Part shown: positions 1 to 16,904 of the stretch, piece after piece
Position numbering within the stretch: position 1 is the first letter of the stretch
Layout: the number at the start of each line of letters is the position of its first letter
The notes under the pieces: generated by a model
Told to the model about the DNA's origin: nothing
Seen by the model: only the letters and a program-made list of their open reading frames with translations
Database searches by the model: none
DNA from: a virus
IMG/VR virus record: IMGVR_UViG_3300045988_108174
Length of the DNA stretch: 64,000 nucleotides
Direction: 5' to 3' (one strand)
Program-made: the position numbers and the translations under genes

Positions 1-57
1 CCAACAAAATTCAACTTCCTTCCAACAAAATTCAACTTCCTTCCAACAAAATTCAAC
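1..57. repeat. Tandem direct repeat, 21-bp unit ccaacaaaattcaacttcctt in 2.7 copies; window starts inside the array
   Basis: Copies at 1-21 and 22-42, partial third copy at 43-57. Confidence 0.9.
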
Positions 58-65
58 AGATCAGC

Positions 66-162
66 GTTTTAAAACGGCATAATGTAGGGTTTTCCTACAA
101 AATTAAGACTTACAGTGCTTTAAAACGGCATAATGTGAGTTTATTCTACAAAATTCAATAGG
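66..162. repeat. Two copies of an about 45-bp direct repeat (66-109 and 118-162) with core tttaaaacggcataatgt...ctacaaaatt(c)aa; iteron-like
   Basis: The two copies are 52 bp apart. They share the ACAAAATTCAA core with the 21-bp repeat. Confidence 0.85.
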
Positions 163-232
163 TTGAGAGTTGAAAACTATATTCTATAGATTAGTAGTAA
201 TCGGAATGTATAACAATTAAAACATAAACAAC

Positions 233-493
233 ATGAACGTATATGACTTTGCGCCTGACTTAGATTTGAGTAAGGAGGGAGAGGGTTCTATTTTTGGGGT
301 GAAAGGAATAGAAGGCAGTGATGGTATAGTATATGCTAAGGTAGTTAGCTGTGTAGACGTTAAGGATTACGGTTGTGAGAGGTGTATTTTTTATGATTGT
401 TATAAGGATAAATGTTTGTTATCGCGTAGTGTTAGTTGTGTAGATGGGGACCGGATTTGTAGGTACGAACAGGCTGCCATAGAGGGGGAGTAG
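233..493 (+). CDS. Hypothetical Cys-rich small protein
   Basis: 86-aa ORF, first after the repeat region; multiple Cys pairs. Confidence 0.4.
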   Translation: MNVYDFAPDLDLSKEGEGSIFGVKGIEGSDGIVYAKVVSCVDVKDYGCERCIFYDCYKDKCLLSRSVSCVDGDRICRYEQAAIEGE

Positions 494-536
494 GCGGCGC
501 CTTGGGCTAAGGCCTGCGGTTGTAGGTGGAACGTAG

Positions 537-552
537 GTCGGAGCAGAGCCGG
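537..552 (+). other. Degenerate copy of the T-arm-like hairpin (gtaggtcgg-agcagag-ccgg) seen at 781 and 1635
   Basis: Flanks are conserved with element E1 (ggtg..gtaggtcgg...ccgg...aca..aaaa..aaggagg..ATG); the loop differs. Confidence 0.3.
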
Positions 553-600
553 AACAGTTTGTTGTGGAACTAAAAAAAATAAAAAGGAGGAGATAGCGAT

Positions 601-681
601 ATGAAAAAGGCATTTAAGATATTTTCTATTATGTTTGTCATAGAAATAGTGTTGATAGCTATTTTAGATGCTATGGCGTAA
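601..681 (+). CDS. 26-aa hydrophobic peptide (MKKAFKIFSIMFVIEIVLIAILDAMA)
   Basis: Perfect SD AAGGAGG 7 nt upstream; below the ORF-track size cutoff. Confidence 0.3.
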   Translation: MKKAFKIFSIMFVIEIVLIAILDAMA

Positions 682-723
682 GTGAGAAAAATTTCTTCAT
701 TAATTTTCTTATGCTTTAGACAG

Positions 724-753
724 AGTGCTCCCGTCTGCGAAGATCGGAGCACT
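724..753 (+). other. Hairpin agtgctcc/ggagcact with internal ct-GCGA-ag GNRA tetraloop
   Basis: 8-bp perfect stem; loop gtctgcgaagat is shared with terminator hairpins at 5591 and 2382. Confidence 0.5.
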
Positions 754-806
754 TGCTTTATGGGATTCATGGTGCGGTAGGTCGGTTCGATTCCGGCGAT
801 CTCACA
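741..806 (+). ncRNA. tRNA-like element E1: T-arm-like hairpin gtcgg-ttcgatt-ccggc plus acceptor-like tail gatctcaca; not a canonical tRNA
   Basis: Has a GGTTCGATTCC T-loop motif. Only about 68 nt, no convincing D or anticodon arms, and the acceptor-like 5' strand sits inside the preceding hairpin. Confidence 0.3.
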
Positions 807-834
807 CAACATTAAAAACAAAGGAGGAAAGAAA

Positions 835-1176
835 ATGAAAGATGGTATTACATTACATCCAGAACACGGATTGAATCCGTCTATAGAAGTTTGCATGATA
901 TGTGGCGAAGAGATGGGGATTGCTTTATTAGGGAATAACATCAAGGGGCAGGCGCCGCATCATATATGCACGGGCGAAGTATGTGACAATTGCAAAAAGA
1001 TAATAGACGAAGGAGGTTGTTTTATTATCGAAGTCGAAGATGGCTCAGATCAAAAGAATCCGTATCGCACAGGAAGATATTGTGCGATAAAGAAAGAGGC
1101 AGCAAAGAAAATGTTTGGACAGGAGCATAATATTGTGTACATGGAAAAGTCTGCATACAGTCTAATAATACTATAA
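835..1176 (+). CDS. Hypothetical zinc-ribbon protein (CxxC...CxxC)
   Basis: 113 aa; SD AGGAGGAAAG upstream. Confidence 0.6.
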   Translation: MKDGITLHPEHGLNPSIEVCMICGEEMGIALLGNNIKGQAPHHICTGEVCDNCKKIIDEGGCFIIEVEDGSDQKNPYRTGRYCAIKKEAAKKMFGQEHNIVYMEKSAYSLIIL

Positions 1177-1191
1177 AAAACGAAGAGAGAT

Positions 1192-1506
1192 ATGTTTACA
1201 AAAGAAGAGCGATTATTCATATGGAAAAAGGTATATGAGATGATTGATAGGCAAGAGGATGGGGAATACATATGTGTTGCGTTAAGAAATGTAGTGTTTA
1301 TGTATTTCAAAAAACATAAAAATATCTATGGGTTTCGTTCAGACGAAATGGTGAGAATATATTTCCCGGAATTGGAGGAGAAGATAAGTATGGCCACAGA
1401 ACCAGAGGAAACAAGAACGTTTTATGGGTGGTTTGGTTGCATTAGTCCAGAAACGAAGGAGGTAAGGCTGAATATTGTGAAAGATATTATAAAAGAGTTA
1501 GAATAG
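1192..1506 (+). CDS. Hypothetical protein
   Basis: 104 aa, co-oriented and tightly packed. Confidence 0.5.
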   Translation: MFTKEERLFIWKKVYEMIDRQEDGEYICVALRNVVFMYFKKHKNIYGFRSDEMVRIYFPELEEKISMATEPEETRTFYGWFGCISPETKEVRLNIVKDIIKELE

Positions 1507-1590
1507 TATTTTTGTTAATCTATTTTATTCATCAAATTAAGTTTTGGGTTTTGGCATGTCGGTTCGTGAGAATAGGCATGTCTATTTGTG

Positions 1591-1660
1591 TATCATAGAG
1601 GGATGGCGCGGCGTGCCGGTATGTATGTGCCGGTCCTGGTTCGATTCTGGGCATCTCACA
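1591..1660 (+). ncRNA. tRNA-like element E2: T-arm-like hairpin cctgg-ttcgatt-ctggg plus catctcaca tail; paralogue of E1
   Basis: Same loop TTCGATT and tail ATCTCACA as E1. Stem bases differ but still pair, a compensatory change. Confidence 0.3.
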
Positions 1661-1912
1661 AACAATAAAACATAATTATATGGAAGTAATAACATTCGGT
1701 CCGAACATGGATTTGTCTTCTAAAAAAAACAGGAGATGTATTTAGATTAAAATTGTATGGTATAGAGTATGATGTCAAAGTAGTTGGTGACGACGAAGAT
1801 CCTCTTATGTTCTGCAAAGATTGTATATTTTTTAACAACTCCGAACGGTGTTCACTCTCAGAATCGCAAGACTGGTGCTTAAAAAAGCAAGTTGTTTACT
1901 GTAAAATAAGAC

Positions 1913-2104
1913 ATGATGAGGGAATTTAATGCGAAAGACGCCAATTTCTTATGGCGTCAAATTGGTAGGATTGATGGGGTGATAGAAACTCTGAACCGTA
2001 CCGAAGGAGAGATGCCGGAAATTATAGCCGGAGTGCTAAAAAGAATAAGAGACGATATAGATAAGTTTGTAGACAATAAAACGAAAGATTATGAGAATAT
2101 ATAG
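1913..2104 (+). CDS. Hypothetical protein
   Basis: 63-aa ORF. Confidence 0.3.
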   Translation: MMREFNAKDANFLWRQIGRIDGVIETLNRTEGEMPEIIAGVLKRIRDDIDKFVDNKTKDYENI

Positions 2105-2300
2105 GAATGATATTATAAAGGCGTCAGCGATAAGCACAGACGACGACAGAGGTTTGTTGTTGTGTTCAATAACAGATTCAGGCTTTACGTCTATAGCGAG
2201 CGTGATATCGGCTGTTAAAGACAAGTTACCAAACAAAGATCATAAGAAGATGGTGTTTGAAATCTTGAATGATACGAAAAAAAGAGTACGGACGATATAA
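2091..2300 (+). CDS. Hypothetical protein
   Basis: 69-aa ORF. Confidence 0.3.
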   Translation: MRIYRNDIIKASAISTDDDRGLLLCSITDSGFTSIASVISAVKDKLPNKDHKKMVFEILNDTKKRVRTI

Positions 2301-2381
2301 CAATTGTGGGACAAAAGTATTGTAATAAAGAGCAGAAAACAATATGTTTATGTAATGTTAGTTTTTTCATTTTTATTGAAA

Positions 2382-2423
2382 AGAGCGCCGGCCTGTGAAG
2401 GTATGCGCTCTTTGTATTTGTAT
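2382..2423 (+). terminator. Intrinsic terminator: agagcgc/gcgctct stem with ct-GTGA-ag tetraloop, then T-rich tract
   Basis: 7-bp stem, GNRA loop, followed by ttgtatttgtat. Confidence 0.5.
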
Positions 2424-2444
2424 AATATATAAAACGATAATAAT

Positions 2445-2699
2445 ATGACAGATAATAACATAGATGTGAATATCGTACCTGTAAAGAATGGTGCGAAACG
2501 TGTTGTGGTATCATATTACCATTATTCACGCAAGGACAAAAATCACATGAGTTCTCAAACGGATTACGTGTGGGAAACAAAGAATGAAGAAATGTTTAAA
2601 TACTTTGAGGCCAGGAGGACAAAAGTATTTTATAGTCAGATTCGTGCCATGTGTAGATTCTATGGCAAGAAAAATGTACGTAAATACAAAAAGCTATGA
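2445..2699 (+). CDS. Hypothetical protein
   Basis: 84 aa; follows the terminator at 2382. Confidence 0.45.
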   Translation: MTDNNIDVNIVPVKNGAKRVVVSYYHYSRKDKNHMSSQTDYVWETKNEEMFKYFEARRTKVFYSQIRAMCRFYGKKNVRKYKKL

Positions 2700-3505
2700 T
2701 ATTAAAAACGACAACCAACGAGTTTTGTTTCATTAACGTAAGTTTCTATGAAACAATAGCAGATCCTCGCTATTTCTTTGAACAAGATTATGAAGAGATG
2801 CCGGAATATGAGGAGGAATTAGATTTTGATTTTGATTCTTATTGCAATAAGTTTATTCCTTTTGTACAGGAATGGGCGAATAAGGTGGGCGAACGCCTTT
2901 ATGAATATGGTGTGAATAACATAAAGGTAATATCGGTCGGACATCCAAAAGAATACAATTATGGTACCGATTGGATAAACGTAGAGGTAGAGTTTTGTGA
3001 TGAATGGAGGCAAAAGATGTTATCTAACATTGGTAAGATTGTTAATGATGATAAATGCAAGAAGTATGCGGAGGCTAATTATCGGTCGGTATCAGGATAC
3101 ATCTTTTTAGGACCTGAAGATTTAAAGGAATTTGAAAAGAAAATAATAGAAAGAAAGTCAGATTCGGGATATGATGTAACAATATTATTAAATATGTATC
3201 TAACTTTGGCTTTTGTAAAAGAATTTGGATTTAAAGCCGGAGAAGCGTGGAGTGAAATAACAGAATATGCTTACGGATGTTTATCGTATTCCGATTTTGC
3301 AACAACAGAGATGCTTATACCGGAAGGTTCGGAGCATTTATTCAAAGACATTTACACGGCAAAGGCCGACGAATTATATCATCATGTCCTGGATAAATTC
3401 GGATGGGCGTGGCGTGATCCGAAATATAAATCAGAAACAGAATTATGCTCGATGTTAAAATGGGCAAAAGAAAAAGGCTTGACCATTGAAGAGTTAAGTA
3501 TTTAA
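2696..3505 (+). CDS. Hypothetical protein (269 aa)
   Basis: ATGA overlap with the upstream gene; long ORF. Confidence 0.65.
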   Translation: MILKTTTNEFCFINVSFYETIADPRYFFEQDYEEMPEYEEELDFDFDSYCNKFIPFVQEWANKVGERLYEYGVNNIKVISVGHPKEYNYGTDWINVEVEFCDEWRQKMLSNIGKIVNDDKCKKYAEANYRSVSGYIFLGPEDLKEFEKKIIERKSDSGYDVTILLNMYLTLAFVKEFGFKAGEAWSEITEYAYGCLSYSDFATTEMLIPEGSEHLFKDIYTAKADELYHHVLDKFGWAWRDPKYKSETELCSMLKWAKEKGLTIEELSI

Positions 3506-3817: not shown

Positions 3818-4091
3818 TAAGCTACGCAAAATGGCTAAGACTACTCCAGGTCTGATAGTGGACGAGGCGCAAAACATGATGCGTGTATCGCTGTATGATA
3901 ATGGGGAACTTAAGAAGATCGTAGTAGTAATGAAATGCGATTCTTTTTTACAGTCAAAAAGTAACATAGAAAAGATAATGTTATTATCATCTTCTATAGA
4001 AGATAGAAAAAACAAAGAAAAAAATAAAACAAAATTAGAAAATGAACAGAATAACAAAAATAAGAGAAGAAATAGGAGGAAAACAGGTTGA
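3798..4091 (+). CDS. Hypothetical Lys/Asn-rich protein
   Basis: 97-aa ORF with a low-complexity C-terminus. Confidence 0.3.
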   Translation: MERPEYNKLRKMAKTTPGLIVDEAQNMMRVSLYDNGELKKIVVVMKCDSFLQSKSNIEKIMLLSSSIEDRKNKEKNKTKLENEQNNKNKRRNRRKTG

Positions 4092-4425
4092 TTTGACCTT
4101 TTATGGGTGTTTTTGCAGCCTTATTGAAGGTGATAGAAAGATAATACTAAAGGCAATAAAAAACGGTCGTAAGAAAGGCGTAATCGGAGCCATTCAGCCT
4201 GGAAGACATGATAGAATTTGGACCACATGGGCTATTGCTTTTGAGGATCTGAAGGTAGGGGATACGGTAGAGTTCAGTACATCTGGAAAATACAATCCCG
4301 GATTTCATGCTACGGAAAAGTATGTAGGGTGTGTAGAATGGATAAAAGGATCGGAATGTGCGATAAAAACAGGTAAGGGGATGGCAGTAGTATTAATTAA
4401 ACACATAGAAAGGGTAGTAAAATGA
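4042..4425 (+). CDS. Hypothetical protein
   Basis: 127 aa. Confidence 0.5.
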   Translation: MNRITKIREEIGGKQVDLTFYGCFCSLIEGDRKIILKAIKNGRKKGVIGAIQPGRHDRIWTTWAIAFEDLKVGDTVEFSTSGKYNPGFHATEKYVGCVEWIKGSECAIKTGKGMAVVLIKHIERVVK

Positions 4426-4706
4426 TGGATTTAAGGATGTTTATAGACCTATTTCAGGAGACTGAGGTAGAAAACTTGTTTAAAGCGTTAGATTTATGTA
4501 TGGAATATGTAAGATTAGATTTACATGTGTCTAATGTAGGAGCTTATGTAACGTGTTCATACAGCAATGATCTTGAATCTCTTTCACAGGCAGAAGGTTG
4601 TAATGTGAATATGATAATAGAGGTACCCTACTTATTCGAAGCATTCATGGAATATGCTTCACCGGAAATGAAGTTGTATTATGAAAAACTAACAGAGATA
4701 GTATAA
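4422..4706 (+). CDS. Hypothetical protein
   Basis: 94 aa; ATGA coupling. Confidence 0.5.
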   Translation: MMDLRMFIDLFQETEVENLFKALDLCMEYVRLDLHVSNVGAYVTCSYSNDLESLSQAEGCNVNMIIEVPYLFEAFMEYASPEMKLYYEKLTEIV

Positions 4707-10646: not shown

Positions 10647-11393
10647 ATGGCAGCATTAACAACACTAAATATAACGGAAAAGAACGCTAATAACAGTTTG
10701 TCCGTAACTGTTAAAGTGAATGTCACCAAAGAAGGAGTGTTTACCACTACCTTGTCAAAAGAAGATGTGGATAAGATTCATTCTTATGGGATCAAATTAC
10801 CTACAAACAGATTAGGCAACGAAGGATATTTCAATAGTATAGCACTTTCTGATTTGGAAAGTCAAATCAGGGAAGTTCTGAAGAGATGTTTAAGTTATAA
10901 AATAGTAGAAGAAGTGCCTGTTATTAAGTATCAACTGGAAACGAATTGCATGTTTTCCTATGACAAAAACGGAAATATTGTCCCTAACCCCTCTAAGGAA
11001 TGGACAGGAAATGATGAGAATGGAAAATGGAGGGATGGAACTTCCCGTTTAGATGCCTTAAACACCCAACCTTTCGGTTTTAGTGTTTATGCAAAACCAT
11101 TTCTAAAAAGAGTAATTGAATATGGTAATAGAGAGACAAAAGTAGAATACGGCAGGTTAAATACAGAAAAAGGAACTTATGCGCACTGGCTGAATTATGT
11201 AACATGCATATCATACAATCGATATAAGCCGGTAATGGAAGTGGAATGCAACGAATGCACCTCAAAATTATTCGTTGATATGATCAAATCTATTTGTGAG
11301 ATAAGTGAACAAGTCAAGAGTTTTATCAATCCAGAACAAATAAAAGCAATTGCGGAGTCAAATGAACCGATTTTGCTTTTATCTAACAACTAA
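10647..11393 (+). CDS. Hypothetical protein (248 aa)
   Basis: Long ORF. Confidence 0.6.
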   Translation: MAALTTLNITEKNANNSLSVTVKVNVTKEGVFTTTLSKEDVDKIHSYGIKLPTNRLGNEGYFNSIALSDLESQIREVLKRCLSYKIVEEVPVIKYQLETNCMFSYDKNGNIVPNPSKEWTGNDENGKWRDGTSRLDALNTQPFGFSVYAKPFLKRVIEYGNRETKVEYGRLNTEKGTYAHWLNYVTCISYNRYKPVMEVECNECTSKLFVDMIKSICEISEQVKSFINPEQIKAIAESNEPILLLSNN

Positions 11394-14590: not shown

Positions 14591-15057
14591 TGATAAGAAG
14601 TCATGGCTTATGCCAGGCTTGCAGGAGCAAAGAGTTGACTCCGAAGAAAAAAAACGGAATTACATCCATTAAAAACAGCAGCAAGAAGAAAAAGTTAGAG
14701 AACCCGGATTTATCCGGGTTTTTTCGTCTTATGTTGGAGGAGTTGAGTACTATTCGAATGTCTATGACTGGTAAGGCTATTCATTTTCCTACAGTATGTA
14801 ACGTCTGTCACATACTTCCGAAAAGGATATATAAGTCGGTTGCTACTTGCAGGGATAATATAGTTTTCCTTCATGAATCGGAGCATACGGTATTCGACAT
14901 GTATCTTGACCGGATGGAATTTGATAAACTTGAAACAGAATTTCCTTTTGTATGGAAGTATGCGGTAAAGAAGGTACTGGATATGGAAAGCAGGGGAATG
15001 ATCAAAGAAAGAGGTAGGTTGATTATTGAAATAATTGACAGATATAACCCCAAATAG
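14536..15057 (+). CDS. Zinc-ribbon protein
   Basis: N-terminal CERCGRKV-x10-CQAC; 173 aa. Confidence 0.55.
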   Translation: MESKEKKLYVCERCGRKVMIRSHGLCQACRSKELTPKKKNGITSIKNSSKKKKLENPDLSGFFRLMLEELSTIRMSMTGKAIHFPTVCNVCHILPKRIYKSVATCRDNIVFLHESEHTVFDMYLDRMEFDKLETEFPFVWKYAVKKVLDMESRGMIKERGRLIIEIIDRYNPK

Positions 15058-15411
15058 TATTAACCTGATATAATTCTATTATAAAAGTTTAATACATCTC
15101 TTTCAGAGATCGGGTTATTAGCCTAAGCCTTGAAACAAAGGCTACGTTATTTGAGAATAGATAGTTACCTACGGATGTTTACCCAAGTTCGTAGCTCTAA
15201 GAATGGTGGTTAAACAGGAGTAGTGTATTTGACGAAACAGTGTTGCCATTATATAAAACCTCTTATAACATTGGCGATGGGTACTAACAGGATGAAATAT
15301 TCCTGACTTATCCCTAACGGGATTTACATCTACCTCGGAGACCGAAAGGTCTCCGAGGGGATGTATTAAAACAGATGAATAGCTTTAAATATATTTAATA
15401 GAATATGGGAT
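15058..15411 (+). other. About 350-bp ORF-less, hairpin-rich region; candidate structured ncRNA or control region
   Basis: No ORF of 60 aa or more on either strand; multiple hairpins including an 11-bp GAAA-loop stem. Confidence 0.4.
15333..15358 (+). other. Perfect 11-bp hairpin cctcggagacc-GAAA-ggtctccgagg
   Basis: Seen directly; GNRA tetraloop; no T-run after it. Confidence 0.6.
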
Positions 15412-15588
15412 ATGAGAAAAAAATATAAGGTTACAATAGAAGCTGACGATGAAATTATTTTCATTGCCAACGTAAAAAGAGGAGAGAGTGAGAGAGAAAT
15501 TGATTTTGAGGGAGCAGCCGCAGATATGGATGAGACTGTAACTGTGTTGTATTATGTTAAAGAGGAATTAATTGAGAAATTGCGATGA
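15412..15588 (+). CDS. Hypothetical 58-aa acidic protein
   Basis: ATGA overlap with the next gene; below the ORF-track cutoff. Confidence 0.35.
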   Translation: MRKKYKVTIEADDEIIFIANVKRGESEREIDFEGAAADMDETVTVLYYVKEELIEKLR

Positions 15589-16904
15589 TAGAACAGAAAA
15601 TAAAAATATTGACAGATTTAGGGTTTGTACCTATGGTGGAGGGAAAAGGAAATACGTTGTTTAGAATGAACGATGTTGTGATGTCGGTGTCAGATCCTAA
15701 TCAAACACCGGAGCAGTTGAAGAAGGAGGTTATGTCTTTAATAAAGAACAGAGACATAGCGGAAAGAGGTGGACAGGTTCCAGTAGTTGAAGAGCCGGCG
15801 CCTGAGCCAGAGCAGGCCCAGAAGGAGGAACCGGAAGCTCCGGCGGAGGAAGCCGCTCCTAACCCCGGAGAAGAGGATTCGAATCCGTTTACAGAAAATC
15901 AGGAAACGTTAGAACCGTTTTATATCTGTGATGAGTTAAAGAAGATCGAGACTCCCAAATTCGTAAGATTGACATTAGACGGTAATCGTTTTTATGTAAG
16001 AAAGATGGACGATGGGACAGCCAAGATATACGCCTCGGTAACAACCATGATCAGAGACGGATTCGTAGATGACAAGACGGCTCTTCAAGAATGGAGACAG
16101 GAGATGAGGATGATTGGTCGCAATCCGGAAGAAGTATCAGAATATGATGCAGATAAAGGAACGATCATGCACTACCTATACGGATTGTACTTGACAGGTA
16201 GAGATATGGTCTTAAATCGAAGTTTTATAGTTAAGACAGTGCAAGAAGGCAAGCTTAAAATATCAAAAAAGAATCTTGACAAATTCTTTGGTAGCATAGA
16301 TGATCTTGATGATATGATTGTCAGAGTTATGAAGTTTGCTAAGTTTTGTTCGGAGTATAAGGTTAAGCCGATGATGATTGAAAGAATATTGTCATTAGAA
16401 GATTATTTGGTAGCTACGCCGATAGATGCGATGGTTAAAATGACATTCAAATACAAAGAAGAAGGTTATTTTGGAGCCGTGTATCAAAGGGCTACGGGGC
16501 AGTTCAAAAAAGGCGATCCGAAGAAGGAAGTGAGAGAAGTGGAGAAAGAAGAGATTGTTATCTTAGATTTTAAATCAGGTGACATACGAAATGAACATGC
16601 TTTTCAATTGGAGGCTGAAAGGAGAATGGTTAAAAACTGGTACGGAATTGATGCACGTATTATGAATTTTTCTCCAAAAAGCACGAACAGTAAAGGTTAT
16701 ACGCTAAAAGAATGGTCTGATAAGAATGCTGCTATGGAGAAAGCGGACTGTGTGTTCCAACAAGGGATGTTGAATCATATCAGAAAAGATAAGAGGTTCA
16801 AAGTGAGAAAAGGAGTGCTGAATATCAATAAGCCGTACAATGAAGAGGATCATACGGTCGTGTATGATATTGCAGAGGAAATGTCTAAAAGATTCATAAT
16901 ATGA
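15585..16904 (+). CDS. Hypothetical 439-aa protein with acidic/Pro-rich linker; possible PD-(D/E)XK-like nuclease core
   Basis: Motif IVILDFKSGD...QLEAE resembles (I/V)D-K-G nuclease motifs; weak. Confidence 0.35.
   Translation: MIEQKIKILTDLGFVPMVEGKGNTLFRMNDVVMSVSDPNQTPEQLKKEVMSLIKNRDIAERGGQVPVVEEPAPEPEQAQKEEPEAPAEEAAPNPGEEDSNPFTENQETLEPFYICDELKKIETPKFVRLTLDGNRFYVRKMDDGTAKIYASVTTMIRDGFVDDKTALQEWRQEMRMIGRNPEEVSEYDADKGTIMHYLYGLYLTGRDMVLNRSFIVKTVQEGKLKISKKNLDKFFGSIDDLDDMIVRVMKFAKFCSEYKVKPMMIERILSLEDYLVATPIDAMVKMTFKYKEEGYFGAVYQRATGQFKKGDPKKEVREVEKEEIVILDFKSGDIRNEHAFQLEAERRMVKNWYGIDARIMNFSPKSTNSKGYTLKEWSDKNAAMEKADCVFQQGMLNHIRKDKRFKVRKGVLNINKPYNEEDHTVVYDIAEEMSKRFII

Follow-up and report, generated by a model that had tools for sequence, protein, structure and literature searches.

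The window analysed here is a 64,000-nt stretch of viral DNA (IMG/VR record IMGVR_UViG_3300045988_108174), which begins with a series of small plus-strand open reading frames (ORFs) located at one end of the phage genome. Two non-coding elements, E2 (682-806) and E3 (~1553-1660), lie between these ORFs on the same strand, and each carries a canonical tRNA T-arm near its 3' end. E2 is situated between the stop codon of a 26-codon ORF (601-681) and the leader of a zinc-finger gene (835-1176). E3 is separated from the gene at 1192-1506 by an A/U-rich segment and is followed by an ATG at 1680. E2 and E3 are a real, conserved feature that has been shaped by selection on RNA structure. Over its first 4 kb the window matches the right end of GenBank OR575929 ('phage csAssE-Sib', a 151-kb genome from the human gut) with 93.7% identity. 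CrAssE-Sib is an epsilon crAss-like phage, the description of which does not mention the elements (PMC11054128). In relatives the array of ORFs runs on unbroken from an upstream polynucleotide kinase/phosphatase, a DHH phosphoesterase and four same-strand tRNA genes. These genuine tRNAs of the phage (Met, Gln, Arg and Cys) have the orientation of the elements, encode no CCA and are followed by a start codon after about 20 nt.

The T-arms read GUCGG-UUCGAUU-CCGGC-GAUCUCACA at 781-806 (E2) and CCUGG-UUCGAUU-CUGGG-CAUCUCACA at 1635-1660 (E3). The loop UUCGAUU and the 8-nt tail AUCUCACA, preceded by G or C and followed by an A-rich spacer, are common to both. Two canonical T-loops with a shared tail had been pointed out in an initial annotation of this DNA, and the sequence and a strict pattern search bear this out; its statement that a spacer and a gene start follow also holds, with start codons at 835 (with AAAGGAGG) and 1680. 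The strict pattern, searched on both strands, was a 5-bp stem (G.U allowed) with a closing G-C pair and the loop TTCRANN. It occurs exactly twice in the 64 kb (781-797 and 1635-1651); the expectation from 100 first-order Markov simulations is 0.23, and two matches were reached in 4 of the 100. Both matches are intergenic, on the same strand, 854 nt apart and followed by the identical 8-nt tail. Neither the loose 10-mer alone nor the tail alone is above chance in the window, and what stands out is that T-arm and tail occur together, on the same strand, in two gaps between genes. Applied to 50 kb of CrAssE-Sib, the strict pattern finds three annotated tRNAs, one further orphan and nothing else. 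Both sites in the window have the 5-bp stem, the G53-C61 pair and the UUCRANY loop of a tRNA T-arm. G.U pairs are present in nearly every version of the T stem: there are two in the E3 of the window, and U.G pairs occupy alternating positions in E2 and in a fourth copy, E0, described below. Because a G.U pair is a C.A mismatch on the other strand, the selected structure is that of the plus-strand RNA, the sense of the surrounding genes.

E2 is represented by 37 distinct variants among more than 100 relatives, and its divergence is below that of the flanking ORFs. Its 5' end, GUGAGA (682-687), is complementary to UCUCAC (800-805), with which it may form an acceptor-like stem; in minimum free energy structures the alternative local partner of 682-687 is UUUUCUUAU at 704-712. 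GUGAGG, which gives a G.U pair, and a single GUAAUA are found among the variants, and the stem is otherwise nearly invariant, a pattern that argues weakly for the pairing. The long hairpin that follows (714-763) consists of the helices 714-715/762-763, 717-720/757-760, 723-731/746-754 and 733-736/741-744 and is capped by a GCGA tetraloop (737-740). It is 99.1% paired (z = -2.4), and three of its pairs change on both sides (G-C/A-U, U-A/C-G and C-G/A-U). The double-sided changes amount to 17 cells, and the observed values were reached in 0-1 of 500 shuffles. The T-arm GUCGG/UUCGAUU/CCGGC (781-797) is 100% paired in the 37 variants, which include GCUGG/CCGGC and GUCGG/CCGAC; the long hairpin and the T-arm taken together are 99.3% paired. 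The six nucleotides on the 5' side of the T stem (775-780) vary freely, as does the variable loop of tRNA. A local alternative for the tail (GGU/AUC beside the T stem) was rejected because its 5' partner would be this same region, which varies without keeping pairs. Direct reading of 760-770 gives AUG-GGAUU-CAU, similar to a small hairpin in E3. The tail GA-UCUCAC-A and the spacer CAACAUUAAAAACAAAGGAGGAAAGAAA extend over 798-834 to the ATG at 835. A mosaic junction lies at about 810-820: the ends and starts of high-scoring segment pairs cluster near 810, and the genes downstream differ among relatives.

E3 is preceded by the A/U-rich segment (1507-1552), which begins after the stop of gene 1192-1506. 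Its divergence is 0.2-0.3%, compared with 5-13% in the neighbouring ORFs, and TTCATYAA is found both here and in the A/U-rich part of E2 (~691-722); the segment is a possible promoter or protein-binding site. The element itself starts with a 5' hairpin, P0 (1553-1582), in which GGCAUGUC (1553-1560) pairs with GGCAUGUC (1575-1582). P0 is 100% paired in 36 variants, with wobble-compatible changes in four pairs. Its loop, GGUUCGUGAGAAUA, contains GUGAGA (1566-1571), the complement of UCUCAC at 1654-1659. These two strands, 100% paired with variation in two pairs (A-U/G.U and G-C/G.U), would make up an acceptor-like stem; should P0 form as well, the result would be a pseudoknot. The fragment GTCGGTTCG noted in the initial annotation exists, but it is located at 1558-1566, in the loop region of this 5' hairpin, and not at 1551. 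Three partners are available to 1575-1582, namely 1553-1560 (100% paired), 1613-1620 (98.6%) and, in part, 1590-1593, which leaves the 5' half ambiguous. A small hairpin with a G-rich loop, UCAU/AGAGGG/AUGG (1593-1606), is 100% paired, with one pair alternating between U-A and U.G, and is a candidate D-loop-like partner of the T-loop. The T-arm is immediately preceded by an extra hairpin, CCGGUAU/GUAU/GUGCCGG (1616-1633), placed as a long variable arm would be; this hairpin is 98.8% paired, five of its seven pairs vary, and it is missing in two relatives, which are deletion variants. The T-arm CCUGG/UUCGAUU/CUGGG (1635-1651) contains two G.U pairs and is 99.4% paired, with variation in four of the five pairs (CCCGG/CCGGG, UCUGG/CCAGG and others). 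The tail CA-UCUCAC-A and the spacer AACAAUAAAACAUAAUUAU (1652-1679) lead to the ATG at 1680, with a mosaic junction at about 1670. Overall, the 30 proposed pairs in five helices of E3 are 99.6% paired over the 36 variants, with 17 additional pair types and four broken cells; slid controls do not exceed 48%. The size of about 68 nt initially reported for the elements is too small, the earlier limits of 741-806 (E2) and 1591-1660 (E3) having left out the 5' parts. The compensatory change that had been proposed is found within each copy when relatives are compared: the T stems remain 99-100% paired although two to four of their five pairs vary.

The pattern GGTTCGATTCNGGNNATCTCACA is present in more than 117 IMG/VR contigs (80-250 kb) among the matches listed, usually twice per contig, and further copies occur in GenBank OR575929 and in Logan/ENA contigs. 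Searches of GenBank phages with the neighbouring proteins (tblastn) returned CrAssE-Sib only, or crAss phages without the intergenic element. Contigs with homologues of the zinc-finger protein or the DHH phosphoesterase (35-68% identity) were either of the same lineage or devoid of T-arm elements. Measured in 30-nt windows over about 100 relatives, divergence is 0.2-2% inside the elements (481-540, 661-720, 781-810 and 1501-1560), as against 5-13% in the neighbouring ORFs. Breakpoints of the alignments pile up directly 3' of E1 (a third conserved block, 494-570), E2 and E3, at about 571, 810 and 1670. The cassette at 1680-2070 is present in about 28 of about 100 relatives, and E2/E3 hybrids as well as deletions between E2 and E3 occur. 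The region thus resembles a set of cassettes, and these conserved islands, with breakpoints directly 3' of them and with hybrids and deletions, are its stable joints. Being the most conserved sequences between variable cassettes, they are points of homologous recombination at which cassettes are swapped or lost; the elements thus serve as recombination junctions.

The relatives contain the fourth copy, E0, at a place about 1.2 kb upstream of where the window begins (for example L130, 1640-1710; L131, 3600-3690; OR575929, ~450-530, minus strand). It is a 64-nt mini tRNA-like element with a three-way junction, UGGUUGU-A-GCAU-AAA-AUCY-(5 nt)-RGAU-AGGA-AUGC-GUG-UCCGG-UUCGAUU-CCGGA-GCAACCU-C, with a start codon 30 nt further on, and it is preceded by a non-coding stretch of about 480 nt with more hairpins (AGUACG...CGUACU). 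The minimum-energy fold of E0 is exactly the proposed three-way junction. Among its 14 distinct variants 95% of the cells pair and three pairs change on both sides; the observed values were reached in 0-5 of 500 shuffles, and slid controls are at most 51% paired. The acceptor-like stem, UGGUUGU/GCAACCU, has seven positions contiguous with the T stem, so that E0 has an architecture of the t-element type; in one variant the strand ACAACCA produces seven perfect pairs. The only candidate anticodon loop has 5 nt and varies (CUAUA, GUAUA, GUACA and AUAUA), and its stem covaries.

The initial annotation had considered tRNA remnants. When the 3' part of E0 is compared with the tRNA-Cys of the phage, 24 of 28 positions agree, and the match takes in the trailer UCUAAA, which lies outside the tRNA; the acceptor strands of E0 resemble those of tRNA-Cys minus one base pair. 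The phage tRNA-Cys and tRNA-Arg have exactly the T-loop GGUUCGAUUC and the closing pairs of the elements. On these sequence resemblances the elements look tRNA-derived, and duplicated phage tRNA genes are likely to have been their ancestors, which is the simplest account. A fifth type is found in one relative only (L036, ~10960-11040), with the sequence GGGACGA..UGGU-CACAUAA-GCCA..AGCGG-UUCGAUU-CCGCU-CCGUCCC-A. It has an acceptor stem of seven positions, the 7-nt loop CACAUAA and the same T-loop. ARAGORN calls it tRNA-Met (CAU) in its mitochondrial and relaxed bacterial modes; it has no D arm, and A replaces U before the anticodon.

E1 (494-570) follows the gene at 233-493, and a mosaic junction comes after its GTGGAAC (570). 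It had been counted as one of three related elements, of which E2 and E3 are real; the membership of E1, which has neither T-loop nor tail, is not supported. E1 diverges by 0.6-1.8% among relatives and at 533-552 reads GTAGGTCGG-AGCAGAG-CCGG, so that GGTG..GTAGGTCGG-N7-CCGG is common to E1 and E2. Its loop AGCAGAG is no T-loop, its hairpin does not covary, variants such as CCAGG break the proposed stem, and RNAalifold favours another helix, GGCCUGCG/CGUAGGUC. E1 is possibly a degenerate relative of E2.

ARAGORN finds 0 tRNA or transfer-messenger RNA (tmRNA) genes in the window. Rfam gives no match in 1-3000, to tRNA, tmRNA or any other family, even at E<=10; the sole match in the window at gathering score is a HEARO RNA (15044-15288). 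The elements are, as initially stated, not full cloverleaves. A functional tRNA is rejected on these results together with the lack of a D arm, of a 7-nt anticodon loop and of a conserved anticodon. With its thresholds lowered to 80%, ARAGORN makes mutually inconsistent calls, Ile or Tyr for different variants of E0 and none for E2. Homologous phages display the conservation and the structure-preserving substitutions for which the initial annotation had proposed to look, while the tRNA finders report nothing. A tmRNA is rejected likewise, there being no RF00023, RF04321 or ARAGORN match and no G3.U70 pair, pseudoknot series or tag reading frame; the tmRNA of phage phi14:2, used as the positive control, was detected by the same tools.

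Intrinsic terminators are rejected, as 1-2600 contains 0 terminator-like sites and the tails are A/C-rich. Promoters of the sigma-70 type and the Bacteroidetes type (TTTG...TAnnTTTG) are not enriched, and no convincing site lies in the elements. A hairpin promoter of the N4 virion RNA polymerase type is unlikely, since the G.U pairs of the stems do not pair on the template strand. The reported lack of the crAss transcription gene block in the epsilon group (PMC7886860) also speaks against it. A bacterial Y RNA was rejected: the region has no Rfam match, and no TROVE/Ro60 protein is annotated in the parts of OR575929 examined, a check that did not extend to a whole-genome Rsr scan. A scan of 185,579 species genomes for GGTTCGATTCNGGNNATCTCAC gave five matches, none of them in a tRNA, and one of these is a 3.9-kb phage contig of the same family binned in a metagenome-assembled genome (MAG). 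Neither the annotations nor the gene calls show an integrase near the elements. The paper on CrAssE-Sib reports only a failed search with FASTER and IntegronFinder and states that integration into the host genome cannot be judged (PMC11054128). The elements are absent from Rfam, and no description of them was found in the literature on the crAss-like phage group.

The explanation that we favour, with a probability of roughly 40%, is that the elements are tRNA mimics which punctuate the mRNA, either by directing its processing or by protecting its ends. E2, E3 and E0 would then be anticodon-less RNAs of tRNA descent embedded in the rightward mRNA of the small-gene block of an epsilon crAss-like phage. 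The part of the tRNA that has been retained would be a canonical T-arm stacked on an acceptor-like stem and recognised by tRNA-processing enzymes, the D and anticodon arms having been replaced by idiosyncratic hairpins. Host RNase P would cut where the acceptor-like stem begins on its 5' side, and a 3' enzyme, RNase Z or a different one, just past the stem. The cuts would punctuate the polycistronic transcript in such a way that the upstream cistron ends at its stop codon and the downstream cistron gains a short, unstructured, A-rich leader of 19-30 nt before its start codon. A stable tRNA-shaped RNA of 60-125 nt would perhaps be released. In a weaker form of the proposal, the folded element would merely shield the adjacent mRNA ends.

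This mRNA punctuation is favoured because of the place of the elements, which are in sense orientation with a stop codon on one side and an A-rich leader on the other, the same layout at the genuine tRNAs, the recognition of acceptor and T-arm by the enzymes, and the precedent of t-elements. RNase P, RNase Z and the CCA-adding enzyme need no more than a minihelix of acceptor stem and T-arm as their substrate. MascRNA and other tRNA-like processing signals of the MALAT1 type are cut by RNase P and RNase Z. The t-elements of plant mitochondria are tRNA-like, are cut by these two enzymes as well and thereby define mRNA ends (PMC1920247). Like these two kinds of signal, the phage elements combine an acceptor-like stem with a T-arm, do not decode and lie within longer transcripts beside coding regions. 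They differ in that the known signals are organellar or nuclear eukaryotic and are cleaved, whereas here the setting is a phage operon and cleavage is only proposed. E2 and E3 have, in addition, a non-canonical junction of T stem and acceptor and large extra hairpins. The mitochondrial tRNA punctuation and the tRNA genes embedded in operons are similar in having tRNA-shaped units between the cistrons of one transcript; the phage elements, unlike those units, are not functional tRNAs, as they possess no D arm, anticodon loop or conserved anticodon.

Several points weigh against mRNA punctuation. That RNase P and RNase Z cleave at the elements is something we purely infer. In E2 and E3 the acceptor-like stem has no more than 6 bp, and a shift of 2 nt separates it from the T stem; numbered as in tRNA, it comprises five pairs and a G-1:C73 pair, with two mismatches adjoining the T stem. 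It is plausible as modelled, and its near-invariance places it beyond confirmation by covariation. It also competes with local hairpins, 682-712 in E2 and P0 in E3, while one relative is without the whole 5' half of E3 and another has GUAAUA in place of GUGAGA. The changes in E3 are all one-sided and mostly of the wobble type, and the shuffle control cannot tell them from chance. The very conserved A/U-rich segments (691-722 and 1507-1552) are not accounted for by a processing model, and if they were promoters, the transcript would lack the 5' strand of the stem proposed for E2. The relatives found are all close (at least ~90% identity), and similar elements were not seen in more distant crAss-like contigs (L134-L136 and phi17:2, 1-50 kb).

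The perfectly kept T-loop consensus, in RNAs for which decoding is impossible, would also be expected of mimics acting in trans, that is, of stable small RNAs, whether processed or not, whose T-arm/acceptor module binds host or phage proteins able to recognise the elbow or the acceptor end of tRNA and which serve as decoys or regulators early in infection. Such proteins could be modification enzymes, the CCA-adding enzyme, EF-Tu, or toxins and defence nucleases whose targets are tRNA ends. Such a role would suit the existence of several diverged paralogues with different bodies and the same T-arm, the polynucleotide kinase/phosphatase of the tRNA-repair type and the phage's own tRNAs a few kb upstream, and the abundant non-coding RNAs from the equivalent region of phi14:2. 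Every copy, however, is directly upstream of an ORF and in sense orientation, which suggests a role in cis, and RNAs without an anticodon loop could not be decoys of anticodon nucleases. We regard a trans-acting role as unlikely, if worth keeping in view.

A role in cis need not involve tRNA enzymes. Left uncleaved, the elements could act as leaders or stabilisers that shield the downstream cistron at its 5' end, or the upstream one at its 3' end, from exonucleases, or that tune the initiation of translation of the next gene. The short, fixed distance to the start codon (19-30 nt) and the A-rich, unstructured spacer are consistent with this possibility, as are the stability of the hairpins and the location of P0, which would be at the 5' end of the RNA if transcription starts within 1507-1552. 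Any stable hairpin would do for this purpose, and both the invariant canonical T-loop of four paralogues and the tRNA-like acceptor pairing of E0 would be left unexplained; we consider the uncleaved leader unlikely. Processing and binding could also be combined, the mini-tRNAs excised by host RNase P and RNase Z punctuating the mRNA and acting in trans as decoys against proteins that bind the tRNA elbow or acceptor. This dual role seems to us quite unlikely.

Descent from tRNA genes, probable in itself, raises the question whether the elements are decaying tRNA pseudogenes or recombination scars with no function at the RNA level, which look conserved since the phage population is young and which serve at most as patches of homology. 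The relatives are all close, the breakpoints of mosaicism coincide with the elements and E1 looks like a decayed copy. Yet the adjacent coding sequence of the same genomes is 3 to 20 times more divergent than the elements, and substitutions in the helices of the elements are overwhelmingly pair-preserving, including double-sided changes in hairpins that have no counterpart in tRNA. The D and anticodon arms have, moreover, been replaced by new, structured and conserved hairpins and not randomly degraded. We consider simple decay improbable. A function at the DNA level, as attP cores that correspond to the 3' terminus of a host tRNA gene or as single-stranded hairpin promoters or origins, is hardly credible even though the 3' portion of a tRNA gene is common in integrative elements and the region adjoins the CrAssE-Sib genome termini (PMC11054128) and other repeats (window 1-160): no bacterial tRNA gene in the 185,579 species genomes has GGTTCGATTCNGGNNATCTCAC or ends in this way, as the attachment-like sites of the initial annotation would suppose, no integrase is near, the G.U pairs of the T stems are C.A mismatches on the complementary strand, and there are three to four non-identical copies.

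The elements belong to a known kind, the tRNA-like structural mimics, in a new form. With the tRNA-like domain of tmRNA they share the combination of acceptor stem and T-arm with inserts foreign to tRNA; tmRNA differs in its length, 260-470 nt compared with 60-125 nt, and the acceptor-like GUGAGA/UCUCAC of the elements has no G.U at position 3. The bacterial Y RNAs (YrlA) have a tRNA-like domain, and some of them are phage-encoded (PMC4201824). They too are non-coding and imitate the T-arm and acceptor region of tRNA; the T-arm of the elements, however, stands at the 3' end, whereas that of YrlA is internal, and the elements lack a long terminal helix for Ro binding. The promoter-stem-loop (PeSL) cassettes and 'boundary' or 'linker' sequences of mosaic phages consist of promoters and simple stem-loops. 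These are comparable as short conserved non-coding modules between small early genes at points of cassette exchange, and they differ in that the conserved module described here has a tRNA-like fold and no promoter that could be recognised.

Intergenic RNAs from the early region of phi14:2, another crAss-like phage, exceed most mRNAs in abundance, and no function has been assigned to them (Drobysheva et al., bioRxiv 10.1101/2020.03.07.982082). At 4031-4500 and 1760-1850 of this Cellulophaga phage (NC_021806, L127) there are a tmRNA gene and an orphan T-arm, GAAGG-UUCGAAU-CCUUC. The tag given by ARAGORN for the tmRNA is GSSVQKLAMVA*, and its Rfam score is 46 bits, one bit under the gathering score. 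Both features fall in the early intergenic stretches that were reported as very highly transcribed 'long non-coding RNAs', and therefore tRNA-shaped non-coding RNAs in this part of the genome may be a wider habit of crAss-like phages.

Few viruses of the human gut are as abundant as the crAss-like phages, whose gene expression is poorly understood. If the elements are cut by tRNA-processing enzymes, they would constitute a clear case of phage tRNA mimicry organising mRNA maturation, and the conserved non-coding islands between fast-changing cassettes would be explained. The excision of mini-tRNAs, if true, would be the counterpart in a bacterial virus of mitochondrial tRNA punctuation. The elements are natural minimal substrates for studies of RNase P and RNase Z, and the T-arm with its AUCUCACA tail is a compact marker by which this phage lineage can be searched for in sequence data.

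Other features of the window deserve a brief description. Its first 160 nt (1-160, plus strand) contain three tandem copies, ~21 nt each, of CCAACAAAATTCAACTTCCTT, followed by two TTTTAAAACGGCATAATGT...hairpin...CTACAAAATT units. This region is near the genome terminus reported for CrAssE-Sib and is the most divergent stretch among relatives (20-30%); its repeats could be packaging, origin or promoter signals. The 26-codon ORF between E1 and E2 (601-681, plus strand) has a strong ribosome-binding site and encodes a hydrophobic peptide, MKKAFKIFSIMFVIEIVLIAILDAMA. It is kept in relatives with amino-acid changes, and some of them use the UGA inside the GUGAGA of E2 as its stop codon. Directly after E3, the ATG at 1680 opens a frame of 21 codons that ends at eight consecutive A (~1724-1731), and the gene continues in another frame as ORF 1753-1929, so that 1680-1929 may be a frameshifted or slippage-prone gene. 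It was rejected as a paralogue of gene 233-493, the similarity being weak (BLASTP E = 0.1).

The early genes have strong AGGAGG ribosome-binding sites, which is unusual if the host belongs to the Bacteroidota, as is assumed for crAss-like phages. One contig of the family (L121) was binned in a Veillonella MAG, where mis-binning is possible. The HEARO RNA (RF02033; 15044-15288, plus strand) scores 95.9 bits against a gathering score of 83 and is located in a non-coding gap of 527 nt. HEARO is an RNA family associated with genes for HNH endonucleases and IscB. The next ORF (15585-16904, 439 aa) has no Pfam match and matches a PHROG 'exonuclease' alone, and there is no obvious IscB partner. The GC skew is +0.2 to +0.33, a strong purine excess on the coding strand, and its sign flips at about 34 kb along with the orientation of the genes (1-34000 compared with 34000-64000).

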